Below, piece by piece: positions 33,028 through 50,568 of a stretch of DNA of 64,000 nucleotides. Where the stretch lies: the UHGV virus genome UHGV-0198106; one strand, written 5' to 3'. Each line of letters opens with the position of its first letter. The first letter of the stretch is position 1. The position numbers and the translations under genes were made by a program. The stretch comes from a virus. The notes beneath the pieces are model-generated. The model saw only the letters and a list, made by a program, of their open reading frames with translations. It did no database searches and was not told the origin of the DNA.

Positions 33028-34314
33028 TCACATTTCAAAAGAGAAACCGCGACCCGATTCATCGGCAAACCGAACTGTACGGGTTTGAGGTTCTAATACT
33101 TCAGGATTATTTGAAACAAATTGATCAGCGCGACTCTCTACCATATCTTCATCAGTCCACACAGCCCTAACAGGTGCGTTGATATCACCAACAGCAAAAC
33201 CCTGACCAGAGAACTGACGTGCGCCGACAGTAAAGCCATTTGATCGACCACGAGAAGGTCTAGCCATCCATTGCTCCATAGAATCGCTTGTAATACCAAG
33301 ATCTTCAAAAGATATTCTACGAGTAGGGCTTACTCTTCGTGACTCTTGTGCTCGACGCATTGTAGGGGATACAAAAACCCCTTCAATTGCATTGTGTCGG
33401 TTAGAGTCTTCTTCTCGACCAAGCAGATCACCACCCGTGTTAGTTGTTAAATTTGTCAACCCTTCAGACCAATACGCATGAATCTGGCTAGAGCTATGAA
33501 TGCTTGACATTAACTGAATCTCTTCATAAGGGATCCCAAAGAATCGACTCATGTCACGATTAACACAATAATGAGCACTTGTTGTATCCTCAATAAGAGC
33601 AACCTGACCTCGTTCGTTGACCAGATGACTAACTGGTTGAGGTGTAGGAAGGTATCGAGTTTGTGCCATATATTGATATGCAACAGATGGATCGGAGAAT
33701 CTTAATACCTGTGAATTAGGCCACTTCTTGTGAACATACTTGATTTCACGACTAGAGACAACCACTGGACAAGGAGAGGTCATAGCCAAATATCCCTGGG
33801 GGGTCATGAACAGCTTGTCAAGAGTCATCGCACCACGGCACATCATAGGAAAATTATCCAATACCTCTTCAATAGAAGTAGGATAATTAAACATGAATTG
33901 GATACGAACCCCATTCCACTGAAACTCAATAATATCAGTGAATGTTAGTTGAGAAGTCCCAGTATACGGCTCATCTGTAGATTCAGCAAGAAGGGATGCA
34001 TATTCAATATCTTGTGATTCTAGCCATTCCTTCACATTACTTTCAACCTCTCGTCCGAGATCTTGCCACTGGTCATGGTGGATAAAGGTATTTCGAGTTC
34101 TTGGGGCCTGTCCTCTGACAATAAAGATATCAATGTCATGAGGTGCTCTGTTATTAAGAACAGCATCACGAACAGCCCCACCAGTGATGATGGGACAAAT
34201 ACAGTCTGGAATCAAGTTGTTGTTAATCAACTGTTCAATGAAGTGACGACCAACAGTGATATCAGGTTGTTGAGCAACCTTATCTGCAATTCGGTTAATC
34301 GGGATAACAATCAT
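33028..34314 (-). CDS. class-II (CCA-type) nucleotidyltransferase with Arg/Ser/Gly-rich tail
   Basis: Head-domain motif IITGGAVRDAVLNNRAPHDIDIF; C-terminal ~150 aa low-complexity RS/RG-rich; start trimmed to ATG 34314. Confidence 0.55.
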   Translation of the reverse strand: MIVIPINRIADKVAQQPDITVGRHFIEQLINNNLIPDCICPIITGGAVRDAVLNNRAPHDIDIFIVRGQAPRTRNTFIHHDQWQDLGREVESNVKEWLESQDIEYASLLAESTDEPYTGTSQLTFTDIIEFQWNGVRIQFMFNYPTSIEEVLDNFPMMCRGAMTLDKLFMTPQGYLAMTSPCPVVVSSREIKYVHKKWPNSQVLRFSDPSVAYQYMAQTRYLPTPQPVSHLVNERGQVALIEDTTSAHYCVNRDMSRFFGIPYEEIQLMSSIHSSSQIHAYWSEGLTNLTTNTGGDLLGREEDSNRHNAIEGVFVSPTMRRAQESRRVSPTRRISFEDLGITSDSMEQWMARPSRGRSNGFTVGARQFSGQGFAVGDINAPVRAVWTDEDMVESRADQFVSNNPEVLEPQTRTVRFADESGRGFSFEM

Positions 34315-34315
34315 T

Positions 34316-34873
34316 TTACATTTTCCAATATAATGAAGGTGGGTCGTAAGGGTCAAATCCTGTGAGTTCACACAAGTATTTATAAACCTTAACAGTTAAG
34401 TTAACGTCCTGTTCACAATAAGTAAACATATCCTCAGTGAAAGCATCCCATGCTTCCTCTTGCTCACCGTAATCACCTTTAAGTTCCCCTAAGAACTCAC
34501 CCCATTGCTTCAAGCCATGACCTCTTGGGCCATGTCTAGGGTCGCCTTTCGGATACTCAGGACTGTCACCAATACGGTCAGGTTTAAGATATCGACTAAG
34601 ACATAAAGTGTCGAAGACGTTAAAACGATAGTCGATCAGATTGGGATACATTTTCTTCAGAGCACAAAGGTCGAAGTCAATAATGTTATGACCTAAGATC
34701 ACATCAGCTTCTGTAAGCTTACGAATCCCATCTTCAATTTGGTGAGGCCGATAGCCCCACCTTTCATCAGTTTCAACATCGAAAATATAAATACACCACA
34801 CTTTGGTTATATCATCGTATAGTGCATTACTCTCGATATCGAATGCAAACACTTTCTTCTTTTTCTTTACCAC
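34316..34873 (-). CDS. 3'-5' proofreading exonuclease (DEDDy), separate gene
   Basis: Exo I FAFDIES, Exo [11 protein letters not shown], Exo III YCEQD; GTG start. Confidence 0.8.
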
Positions 34874-35121
34874 GGTGAAGCTCCATCTGCTTGACTGACG
34901 AGAGAAGCTGCATCCTCTCCGTTAGTTAAAACGAATGGATTATCTTCGTCAACTTCAAAGTCTTCCCTTTCTACAAGTCTGCCGGTCTCACTGATATACT
35001 TAGTATAACAGACACCTGTCTGACCGTAGTTACGTTCTTTCAGTAATCGAATGACTGAGAGGTTCTTAGCTAAGCCATCAGCTTGCTTGTCACGCTCAAA
35101 GCCAATGATACACTGACACCA
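34867..35121 (-). CDS. primase-helicase, 3' exon (C-terminal segment)
   Basis: Encodes [36 protein letters not shown]..., collinear with the C-terminus of T7 gp4-type helicases; no own canonical start; exact splice junction uncertain by ~20 nt. Confidence 0.55.
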
Positions 35122-35747
35122 CAAAAGTTCAGATATGATCGCTACTCATACCCCGCACCACTACATGCTGCTTACAGTTTCCTGCAAGATCGGACTATCT
35201 CACCACACAAAAGTGTGCCTACTGCTTCCATTTAAGTCAATGTTAATGACACCACTTGGCTGTACTTCGGTCTTATGACCACCCTAGTCTCTGCACTTTC
35301 TAAACAGTCTTCCGTTTATAATTAAAGAAATTGTAACCTCTCTGAACATTCTCAGCGTTGGTTACCCACTCCAAATTAGTTGCCACGTTATTATCTCTTG
35401 TATGGTCCAAGTGATCAATAAATGGATAATTGTGAGGGTTAGGAACAAAGGCAATAGCTACTAGTCGGTGCATGTAGAATTTCTTTCTTTGTCCCGTATC
35501 CATTCTTAAGTAAACAGTTAAATATCCGTTGCCATGTCTGGCCCCTAAGATAACATTGCCTGTTTTACTATTATAAATCGTACCATCAGGCCGCACCCAA
35601 TAATTAGATGCACCTTCTATTTGTTTCTCTTCCATAAAGCCTCCTTGCTCTTGGAAGACTGTCTAGCTTAGCTCAGGATTGGCATATCTTTCGACTTAGC
35701 TTTCCCTGAGTTCAATAGGTTTTACATGCGCAGGTTTGTTTACGCAT
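35122..35747 (-). mobile_element. group I intron candidate carrying an HNH homing endonuclease ORF
   Basis: About 620 nt insertion between helicase motif H3/H4 region and the C-terminal exon; contains a complete HNH ORF; boundaries approximate. Confidence 0.5.
35300..35635 (-). CDS. intron-encoded HNH homing endonuclease
   Basis: HNH_3 motif IDHLDHTRDNNVATNLEWVTNAEN with N-terminal YWVRPDGTIYN module. Confidence 0.7.
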   Translation of the reverse strand: MEEKQIEGASNYWVRPDGTIYNSKTGNVILGARHGNGYLTVYLRMDTGQRKKFYMHRLVAIAFVPNPHNYPFIDHLDHTRDNNVATNLEWVTNAENVQRGYNFFNYKRKTV

Positions 35748-37277
35748 AAGGGAACGAGAACCAGTGAACTGCACTTCACGTACCTGTCCACCTTCTTCGT
35801 GAGGAGCACCACCTGCCGGAGCATTGAGGTGAGATAGAACGAAAGCGGTAAAGTCTAATTCTTTACACATACCAGCAAGCTCGGAAGCAATCTTACTGAT
35901 TTCAGTGTTAATCTCTGAAGGTGTTAAATGAGATACCAGAGCGGTAATGTTATCAAGGATGATAAACTTACACTGGTTTTCAACTACCCAGAAACGGATA
36001 CACTGTTTAATGTCTTCCCATTCGTTCTGTCCGAAGTTGTCATACAAGAAGAATTTGTCTGCATAACGAAGTGCTTCATTACGCAAATCCTCCTCATCAT
36101 ATTCAACATCTGGTCGGTGGAAAGGAATAGATGCTGACTTACCAGCAATGTTCTTAACAGACATGCCTACCTTCTCTTCCAAGAAGAAGCCACCTCCATT
36201 AAAACCATGCTCTAAGCACAGATGAGCAACCAGCTCGTGAGCAATGAGTGTTTTACCACTCCCTACTCCACCACCAATTGCTACCACCTCTCCCCATCGA
36301 ATACCGAAGGTCATTTCATTCAGAGTCTTCCACGGATAGGGGATACCCCATTCTGCTTTCTTCAGAGCATCATCAAGACAATCAAAGATTGTTACAGCAC
36401 CAGCAGGAGATTCCCGCTTTGCTGAATACTTGAGAATGTTGAATAACTCTTGACCACGACCAGACAGAAGCATGTCATTCGCATCCTTAATCTCTTTCTC
36501 CACACCGTTGTATGGGAAAGTTCCTTTAGGAATACGAGCAAACTTGACATGAGGGAATAAAGAACGACCTTTTGTTAAAGCTATCTCACCTGCATCATCG
36601 TTGTCCATGCAGAGCACAACCTCCTCAAAACCATTTACGAAGTCTCGATTACGAGACAACACAGAAGAGATTGAACCTGCACCGAACGGTAAAGAAACAC
36701 ATGCTGGCTTAATGTTTGTTGCATTTGTAAAAGCTGTAAGGACATGGAAACCAGACATACAAGATAGCGGGTCTTCAAAAATGAATAGCTTCTTGTTGTA
36801 CACATCACCACGCTGAGCCTGTGCCATACCAAATAAATCTGCTTCTTTCACACTGCCAACGTAATAAAACTTCTTACTATCTAGCAGTTTAACCTCGTAA
36901 CCAACGATGTTTCCATCACGTTCACGAGGAAAGAAGTAACTGTCTGGTGTCTGACCATCAGTTTGGCTGAGGCCAATGCGACACTCAAAACGCTCTGATA
37001 CGGCTTTAGGGATTAAACGTCGAGTAAGTTCACCCTGAGGAAGCTCTAAGCAATCATCTAAGACTTCTCTCAACTCTTCAGGGGATAACTCTTTCTTCTC
37101 GTTTGGAGTAGGTGTAGTGCCCTTTTCGAACACTTCGTAATTCCCACAACGGTTACAACTTCCCCACTCCTCACCGGTCTCTTCGTTACGGAAGAGAATC
37201 ATGTGGTTGTGGGTTTTATCACGACCATGAGAGATACATTCCTTACAGCCTGTGTCTCCCAAAATGATCTTTGACAT
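35742..37277 (-). CDS. primase-helicase (T7 gp4-like), 5' exon
   Basis: Zn-ribbon (CKEC...CNRCG), TOPRIM CMDNDDAG, helicase Walker A GGGVGSGKT and Walker B FIILDN; collinear with T7 gp4 through QFTGSRSL; track ORF runs on into the intron to a stop at 35712. Confidence 0.8.
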
Positions 37278-50464: not shown

Positions 50465-50568
50465 AAGAGCTCTTAGCGAGGGTGACAGGACTCGAACCTG
50501 CATACTCCATTTACTTCTTTAACGACCGCTTAGAAGGCGGGGAAGATACACCCTCACTAAGAGCTCTC
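50465..50568 (-). other. structured element: 20-bp inverted repeat enclosing tRNA-like T-arm and anticodon-like hairpin
   Basis: Arms aagagctcttagcgagggtg / caccctcactaagagctctc; on the minus strand GCAGGTTCGAGTCCTGT (T-arm-like) and CCGC-CTTCTAA-GCGG (UCU anticodon-like loop); no canonical D-arm, so not called as tRNA. Confidence 0.3.

Follow-up and report, generated by a model that had tools for sequence, protein, structure and literature searches.

A candidate mobile group I intron with an HNH endonuclease reading frame in the primase-helicase gene of a Kuravirus-type phage genome

In the virus genome UHGV-0198106 (a stretch of 64,000 nucleotides (nt), here called the window), a gp4-type primase-helicase gene on the minus strand stops early and resumes downstream in a different frame, and an HNH endonuclease gene lies in between. 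The question raised by this locus is whether the helicase gene is dead, is split into separately translated parts, or is made whole again at the RNA level. A first-pass annotation, made from the sequence alone, had proposed that the intervening DNA is a group I intron carrying an HNH open reading frame (ORF). The comparative analysis supported that proposal. A precise insertion, a U·G pair in P1, a terminal (omega) G, covarying P3–P9 helices, and an I-HmuI-like ORF all point to it. Very probably, the insertion is a mobile, IA2-like group I intron of the phage type that sits in an essential primase-helicase gene.

The window was compared by megablast with 50,697 phage records. It was placed in Kuravirus (phiEco32-like coliphages) with 96–97% identity. 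In 96 of the 99 matching records, the alignment to the window came in two pieces, with ~620 query bases skipped. The intron-less reference was phiEco32 (locus L001), whose gp75 of 596 amino acids (aa) is annotated as 'DNA primase/helicase'. Direct comparison with phiEco32 showed a single insertion at 35741..35122. The insertion, estimated at first pass as ~620 base pairs (bp), was exactly 620 bp. Both junctions were unambiguous, with zero shared bases able to shift either. The insertion fell between codons R512 and W513, and the protein end of exon 1 was ...SRSLMR. The first-pass junctions, given with an uncertainty of ~20 nt, were exact on the 3' side (W513) and two codons too early on the 5' side. 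In-silico excision of the 620 bp gave an uninterrupted 596-aa ORF. The joined protein was essentially identical to phiEco32 gp75, with differences only near the C-terminus.

In the uninterrupted genomic reading, the minus-strand ORF 37277..35712 encodes 521 aa. It ends ...HEEGGQVREVQFTGSRSLMR, followed by nine unrelated codons (KQTCACKTY) and a stop. The frame-shifted downstream ORF 35124..34867 (minus strand) opens with TTG, which is its only 'start' and is made by the last three intron bases. Neither an ATG/GTG start nor an upstream Shine-Dalgarno sequence was found for exon 2 in the ORF listing and the raw sequence at the locus. The short unrelated tail to the stop at 35712 and the absence of a canonical start from the ORF that resumes the gp4 C-terminus had both been described correctly at first pass, as had the collinearity of the gene with T7 gp4. 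Residues 117–571 of the spliced protein matched T7 gp4 chains (5IKN/6N7I/1Q57) in phmmer with an E value of 1.5e-32. The TOPRIM primase and DnaB-family helicase domains were collinear, as in the T7 gp4-like bifunctional primase-helicase, and the precomputed annotation placed a DnaB_C domain on the 521-aa product.

In the T7 alignment, the insertion site corresponded to Q494/L495 of T7 gp4, which lie in helicase motif H4. R487, G488, and S496 of T7 gp4 are residues of the motif H4 region known from mutant studies. T7 gp4 R522, presumably the arginine finger, aligned with R542 in exon 2. An initial placement of the site directly behind the arginine-finger codon was wrong, as the aligned position is Q494/L495 and the equivalent of R522 lies in exon 2. 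The truncated 521-aa product would be without the residue aligned to T7 R522 and without half of motif H4. RNA splicing was the simplest reading, because exon 2 has no start or Shine-Dalgarno sequence and the 521-aa product is incomplete, yet near-complete phages carry the allele.

The occurrence of the insertion in nature was investigated. The exact 111-aa HNH protein was present in 53 blocks of public assemblies; in NCBI nr, it was present only as a metagenome-derived 'homing endonuclease'. Every contig read had the same gene order: the 521-aa helicase fragment, the HNH gene, and an ORF of 85–89 aa. Most intron-carrying contigs were near-complete phages of 68–80 kb, and the presence of the allele on such contigs in many samples implied that the gene is functional. 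One contig (ENA ERZ1034739 NODE_23) was 100% identical to the window across 6.3 kb. Further copies were obtained via a DNA pattern (an IMG/VR contig) and via the exon-2 ORF, and these were not selected by HNH identity. At least 11 independent metagenome contigs had the 620-nt insertion at an identical site, and all copies were exactly 620 nt. Since the same-site insertion recurs in these contigs, the interruption is not a chance pattern.

The ends of the insertion had the features of group I splice sites. The 3' end of exon 1 was ...AUGCGU, and the intron started AAACAAACCUGCGCAU... and finished ...CUGAACUUUUG. U(−1) was in a U·G wobble closing a 6-bp P1 at the 5' splice site, in which AUGCGU pairs with GCGCAU (intron positions 11–16). 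The terminal intron base was G (...CUUUUG, 35122). RF00028 was the sole Rfam family in the intron region. It gave two partial hits (E values of 6.6e-5 and 1e-3), one of 28.7 bits at model positions 60–141 (P4–P6) and one of 24.8 bits at P6'–P9, against a gathering score of 50. In a scan of the whole window, the E values were 0.0024 and 0.037, and these were the only non-tRNA hits; at the gathering threshold, the whole window returned a weak tRNA alone and not the intron. A covariance-model search for P1–P9 elements and a terminal G had been put forward at first pass. P1, P3–P9, and the terminal G were found, and the two model hits stayed below the gathering score.

The fold was examined by comparison with related introns. 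Sensitive BLAST with the intron alone found no phage record with the whole intron, only ribozyme segments elsewhere. Segments matched in the Kuraviruses O18-011 (positions 442–518, 96%) and VTCCBPA_211 (positions 17–76, 90%). Matching DNA also lay between fragments of split genes for DNA polymerase (Vequintavirus and Aeromonas phages), terminase (Vibrio phages), and the major head protein (phage C72C1). Four ORF-less related introns exceeded the RF00028 gathering score, with 75–90 bits. Seven introns (the three Kuravirus elements, C72C1, and three Vibrio introns) were aligned after ORF deletion, and pairs were counted in P1, P3–P6, P7 (as a pseudoknot), P8, P9, and P9.2. P6a and P7.1/P7.2 were left out of the counting (MAFFT misalignment) and were checked by eye and in the same-site set. 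In this alignment, 86.9% of the cells were paired, versus 32–42% in controls with partners slid by 1–3 columns. Changes on both sides were found in 27 of 49 pairs, and none of 500 shuffles was as high on every measure. The P3 strands were CCUAUUG/CAGUAGG in the window, CUCUGUG/CGCAGAG in O18-011, CUAGGUG/CGCCUAG in VTCCBPA_211, and CUGUGUG/CGCACAG in C72C1. P6a consisted of unrelated sequence in the window, O18-011, and VTCCBPA_211, yet was complementary in each. The results supported a P3–P9 core including the P3/P7 pseudoknot, as judged by covariation.

The 11 same-site copies from metagenomes were aligned separately. The 84-pair structure was 99.9% paired, with a single unpaired cell, and all six P1 pairs were retained. 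Stem substitutions occurred at eight pair positions, five of them to wobble pairs and three compensatory (U-A to G-C in P7.1; U-A to C-G and G-C to A-U in P9.2). Such pairing, with compensatory and wobble changes, is as expected if selection keeps the ribozyme working. The elements of the intron and its exons are listed in Table 1.

Table 1. Elements of the interrupted primase-helicase gene and of the candidate intron, in the order of transcription.
Feature	Position in window	Strand	Basis
Exon 1, primase-helicase codons 1–512, ends ...AUGCGU (U at −1)	35742..37277	−	96.9% identity to phiEco32 gp75 up to last base
P1 exon strand AUGCGU, predicted 5' splice site after U35742	35742..35747	−	Invariant in 11 copies
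Candidate group I intron, 620 nt, IA2-like: P2 absent, P7.1/P7.2 present, ORF in P6a loop	35122..35741	−	Exact insertion, RF00028 partial hits, covariation
ACC beside guide, possible 3-bp P10 with exon 2 GGU	35733..35735	−	By eye only
Internal guide sequence GCGCAU (P1 3' strand)	35726..35731	−	Direct sequence reading
P3 5' strand CCUAUUG	35713..35719	−	Pairs with CAGUAGG; 6/7 pairs compensatory among related introns
P4-P5-P5a (GAAA loop)-P4'	35673..35709	−	Rfam model positions 60–100; folding
P4 UCAGGG/UCCUGA	within 35673..35709	−	100% paired, 3 compensatory pairs in related introns
P6 (GC/GU) and P6a 5' strand CUAGACAGUCUUCC	35653..35672	−	P6a is a 14-bp helix with 35313..35300 and closes the ORF loop
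Shine-Dalgarno AAGGAGG of HNH ORF	35640..35646	−	Predicted pairing with distal P6a 5' strand, local folding
HNH homing-endonuclease ORF (candidate), 111 aa, I-HmuI-like N-terminal region and HNH_3 core	35300..35635	−	Pfam, I-HmuI, PHROG
P6a 3' strand GGAAGACUGUUUAG and P6 3' strand	35295..35313	−	Overlaps last 5 ORF codons and stop
J6/7 and P7 5' strand, GCAGA-GACUA	35285..35294	−	Rfam consensus ...aAGACUA; P7 100% paired in all relatives
P7.1 (UGGUC AUAA GACCG) and P7.2, two hairpins between P7 and P3'	35225..35284	−	Folding of 60-nt segment
P3 3' strand CAGUAGG	35218..35224	−	Covariation in related introns
P8 hairpin CACAC-UUUU-GUGUG	35204..35217	−	Compensatory in relatives; same-site copies vary in loop only
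J8/7 and P7 3' strand, GUGAGA-UAGUC	35193..35203	−	Fits Rfam consensus GAUAUAGUC; pairing counts
P9 (GAAA tetraloop), P9.1, P9.2	35131..35188	−	Folding; P9 6/7 pairs compensatory among relatives
Terminal (omega) G, predicted 3' splice site after G	35122	−	...CUGAAC-N4-5-G ends homologous in related introns
Exon 2, codons 513–596 and stop	34867..35121	−	95.7% identity to phiEco32 from first base on
Exon 2 content: remainder of helicase motif H4 and R542	34867..35121	−	T7 gp4 alignment

The subgroup was considered IA2-like, a placement by architecture rather than by a formal classifier. P7.1 and P7.2 between P7 and P3' are the IA2 criterion in the Michel–Westhof classification, and together with an ORF in P6a they make up the phage IA2 architecture of T4 td and nrdB. 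The P7.1/P7.2 segment of the window was 96% identical to that of the O18-011 element. In the region 35640–35662 (minus strand), UCUUCC could pair also with HNH codons 1–3 (GGAAGA). For five of six related introns (regions of the window, O18-011 (L002), VTCCBPA_211 (L003), L008, and L015), local folding predicted a hairpin that pairs the Shine-Dalgarno sequence of the HNH ORF with the distal P6a 5' strand or with bases next to it. The folding models suggest structural masking of HNH translation by this pairing.

The HNH ORF of the intervening DNA was complete, as first annotated, and encoded 111 aa. It scored 34.2 bits with Pfam PF13392 HNH_3 (cut-off 24.8). PHROG 59 and 959 ('HNH endonuclease') were also matched, PHROG 959 (a profile of 138 positions) near full-length. 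Residues 1–99 aligned with I-HmuI (PDB 1U3E) with an E value of 1e-12, and D74, H75, and N96, whose roles we take to be catalytic, were conserved. The alignment stopped at residue 99 of the 174 in I-HmuI; the ORF ended at residue 111, and the C-terminal DNA-binding module that gives a long target site, whether helices plus HTH or NUMOD1/IENR1, was not present in it. The nearest phage homologues of the protein had less than 47% identity. Among the ORFs of the sister elements, HTH_23 was detected in that of VTCCBPA_211 only.

Conservation of the HNH protein was examined in its 90% cluster of 24 members and in a diverged phage. Among the 15 listed cluster members, the length of 111 aa was kept in 13 and the catalytic residues were invariant in all. 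Two length variants were observed. P0010 had lost the stop, and its translation continued into the P6'/J6/7/P7 region to give 120 aa; P0009, with a later start, had 98 aa. The diverged phage, with the intron at the same site, was represented by two contigs (L031 and L033, from Logan ERR3503306 and ENA ERZ27239221). Relative to these, the HNH ORF had 37 synonymous and 4 nonsynonymous differences (pS 0.545, pN 0.015, pN/pS ~0.03). The binomial probability of so few replacements was ~1e-21. The 37 versus 4 changes, together with the conservation in the cluster, indicate that the HNH protein is maintained by selection.

Divergence along the locus was uneven in L031. Differences from the window were ~17% in exon 1, 0/106 in the 5' ribozyme part, 41/336 in the HNH ORF (nearly all synonymous; 12% in the ORF interior), 3/178 in the 3' ribozyme part, and ~3.5% in exon 2. 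Such a mosaic pattern suggests that recombination took place around the intron. Homing with co-conversion could have produced it, as could an exchange of ORFs on a scaffold that stayed conserved, and neither is proven. Among close relatives, the intron was 96–98% identical, about equal to the exons. Recent sweeps were not evident, because the intron is no more conserved than the exons in these phages.

From these features, we infer splicing, a nuclease activity and its target, homing, and translational masking, in the following sequence. The primase-helicase gene would be transcribed through the intron, and the RNA would fold into a P1–P9 ribozyme with the exon AUGCGU paired to the guide GCGCAU. 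An external guanosine would attack after U(−1). The freed 3'-OH of exon 1 would then attack behind the terminal G, so that ...AUGCGU is ligated to UGGUGU... and the mRNA of the 596-aa helicase is restored. The expected ligated junction is CUUAUGCGU/UGGUGUCAG. The minimal 111-aa I-HmuI-like HNH nuclease likely nicks or cuts intron-less helicase alleles of co-infecting Kuraviruses, and repair of the nicked or cut allele would copy the intron in (homing). Pairing with the P6a strand probably hides the ribosome-binding site of the HNH ORF.

Several observations weigh against a mobile intron of this kind. I-HmuI binds DNA with C-terminal helices and a helix-turn-helix; these are missing from the HNH protein, which makes site-specific activity uncertain. 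The similar identity of intron and exons would be expected as much from long residence as from recent homing. In the megablast search, not one of the 99 matching Kuravirus-type isolate records had the intron, which shows that its spread is not universal. P10 is weak, at 3 bp. The intron scored below the Rfam gathering score, for which an explanation is offered by the 333-nt ORF loop, which splits the model. The missing region equal to the ~75-aa C-terminal DNA-binding part of I-HmuI, the like divergence of intron and exons, and the intron-free isolates would also suit an intron that splices and passes mostly vertically, with an HNH protein that does not act, or has ceased to act, as a homing endonuclease. 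Such a protein might be a truncated remnant with another role, for example as a splicing helper or as a nickase in phage competition or exclusion. This was considered unlikely, since purifying selection on the ORF is strong and the catalytic residues are invariant in the listed cluster members. The near full-length match to PHROG 959 suggests that short HNH proteins are a recurring phage family. In addition, the same site is occupied in a phage with a strongly diverged exon 1 and flanks that are unusually similar, which suggests horizontal exchange.

The other explanations dispense with an RNA intron. Genes split by homing endonucleases occur in some T4-like phages, and split replication genes are known in phages. 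Gene finders called three separate ORFs at this locus, as would be expected if a free-standing HNH cassette split the helicase into 521-aa and ~85-aa polypeptides that reassemble. That arrangement is very improbable here, since the second polypeptide would have to begin without ATG/GTG and Shine-Dalgarno sequences at a TTG borrowed from the intron. The sequences on either side of the HNH ORF make up a covarying group I core, for which a simple cassette has no need, exon 1 bears the nine-codon unrelated tail, and the split lies inside motif H4. A dead gene (a defective phage or an assembly artefact) or a bypass at the protein level (an intein or a translational hop) has next to no probability. 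It would account for the interrupted reading frame and nothing else, whereas more than 50 collection blocks, drawn from samples and assemblers unrelated to one another, showed the same architecture, and the RNA helices are under selection as is the ORF. An intein was ruled out, since in-frame stops interrupt the insertion and it has no continuous ORF of the intein type. Translational bypass was rejected on length, as 620 nt is far above the ~50 nt known from T4 gene 60. A group II intron was also rejected, as no reverse-transcriptase ORF was seen and no group II hit was obtained in Rfam. A mobile group I intron thus remained the preferred explanation.

The element was compared with known systems. 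In the SPO1 DNA-polymerase intron with I-HmuI (and the relatives I-HmuII of SP82 and I-BasI of Bastille), a group I intron with an HNH ORF likewise lies in an essential replication gene, and the alignment with I-HmuI given above includes the positions of D74, H75, and N96. In contrast to SPO1, the host gene in the window is a primase-helicase instead of a polymerase, the ORF has no more than 111 aa, the phage is a podovirus of a Gram-negative host, and no nucleotide similarity was detectable. The T4 IA2 introns in td, nrdB, and nrdD (sunY) have P7.1/P7.2, a looped-out endonuclease ORF (in P6a in td and nrdB), and an ORF ribosome-binding site masked by RNA. The window intron is like them in P7.1/P7.2, in the ORF in P6a, and in the predicted hairpin sequestering the Shine-Dalgarno sequence. 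It differs in the endonuclease family (GIY-YIG I-TevI/II in T4 td and nrdD), in the target gene, and in the absence of P2. Group I introns with HNH ORFs in the DNA polymerase genes of T7-like phages were reportedly described by Bonocora and Shub. As in the polymerase introns of T7-like, rV5-like, and Aeromonas phages, a replication gene of a podovirus or coliphage is cut at a conserved motif. The 3' domain of the window intron (P7'-P9-P9.2-end) was 77% identical to the DNA-polymerase introns of Vequintavirus and Aeromonas phages, but the gene and site differ, and the 5' halves and ORFs are unrelated. No paper on introns in Kuravirus/phiEco32 or in gp4-type primase-helicase genes was found in the literature.

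Sister elements were found in other Kuraviruses (VTCCBPA_211, L015, and O18-011). They belong to one ribozyme family with the window intron (5' core 90% and P7.1/P7.2 96% identical), with an HNH ORF in P6a throughout and the same gene interrupted, except that the O18-011 element is intergenic. Their sites differ from that of the window (codon 416, codon 311, and intergenic, respectively), and their HNH ORFs are different and longer (164–176 aa). The sequences of P1, P3, P6a, and P8 differ as well, with complementarity kept.

The VTCCBPA_211 intron (PP989838.1, 1671-2410) was 739–740 nt in length and lay after codon 416 (F-G/Q-N). The exon end ...CUUCGGU paired with the internal guide sequence GCCGAAG, the terminal base was G, and a 176-aa NUMOD4-HNH_3-HTH ORF lay in P6a. 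Silent changes relative to phiEco32 were observed in three codons flanking the site. L015 (a contig of Logan SRR36216634) had two introns in one helicase gene, one of the window type and one of 785 nt after G311 (1507-2291; exon ...GAGUGGGGU/AAGUAAAACUGCCCAUC...). The second belonged to the same ribozyme family and carried a 166-aa HNH ORF.

The O18-011 element (NC_070985.1, 2215-3051) was 837 bp in length and lay exactly after the primase-helicase stop codon, and the polymerase-exonuclease gene had lost its first 7 nt to it. It had a complete group-I-like core, including the P3 given above, and a 164-aa HNH ORF. Its ends were non-canonical, the base at −1 being A and the last one U. A 43-bp copy of the helicase codons GQVREVQFTGSRSL followed the expected omega G (...GAACACAACG). 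Possibly, judging by this copy, the element is an intron that once lay behind the HEEG codon (...GAAGAAGGU/CAUAGAAGCCC...) and moved ectopically with part of its 3' exon. The corresponding intron/exon junction had no hits in IMG/VR, and megablast of the element returned O18-011 itself only. At least three sites in the Kuravirus primase-helicase gene are occupied (after codons 311, 416, and 512), and the O18-011 relic may derive from a fourth. A tentative idea, which we hold to be rather doubtful, is that this gene is an arena in which one ribozyme family repeatedly colonises new sites and HNH ORFs are swapped on a conserved scaffold, with strong selection maintaining even a minimal 111-aa HNH protein that has no DNA-binding domain.

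Related introns were also observed outside Kuravirus. In Vibrio phage 1.187.O._10N.286.49.F1 (L009, 429-1794), three ORF-less group I introns (RF00028, 75–90 bits) lay within 1.4 kb and cut the terminase gene into several 'terminase-like' fragments; one was 92% identical to the P3–P6 segment of the window. In Proteus phage vB_PMG_YP1 (L005, 1000-1790), a polymerase-like ORF annotated as 'hypothetical protein' was interrupted at ...AKTFIYAFL, which we take to be motif B of a family A DNA polymerase. The 3' half of the ribozyme there was 84% similar to P6'–P7.2 of the window. The HNH ORF started ~20 nt after the exon, and no 5' ribozyme half was visible where expected.

Two other loci of the window were noted. 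The gene downstream of the exonuclease subunit (33028-34371, minus strand) encoded 447 aa and was the most variable part of the neighbourhood, with 345–454 aa in intron-carrying relatives. Identity to the window was 88.6–92.9% in an interval that spans the exonuclease gene and the beginning of the variable one, and 63.5–76% in the next interval. Its product had only weak or faint precomputed Pfam hits to Gad2. A marginal tRNA (50477-50555, minus strand; RF00005, 30.2 bits versus 29) was the sole Rfam match reaching the gathering score.

Phage replication genes with HNH-bearing group I introns have been familiar since the studies of T4 and SPO1. No concept is changed by the present locus: the site and the element are new, and the kind of element is already known. 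The gene models can be corrected: in public calls, an essential helicase appears as three genes, namely a truncated helicase (521 aa), the HNH gene, and an orphan ORF (~85 aa). Deposited phage genomes contain sister introns that have gone unrecognised in the same way, as in VTCCBPA_211, where the pieces are annotated as separate genes for 'DNA directed DNA polymerase', 'hypothetical protein', and 'helicase'. With the gp4-type primase-helicase of phiEco32-like coliphages, one more phage replication gene is seen to carry a group I intron, again at a catalytic motif. With an E. coli host and many intron-less relatives, these phages are a convenient system for studies of homing, co-conversion, and intron site-switching. 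If recurrent colonisation and ORF swapping are true, ectopic intron transposition at the DNA level and modular exchange of ORF and ribozyme would be documented in a tractable coliphage.

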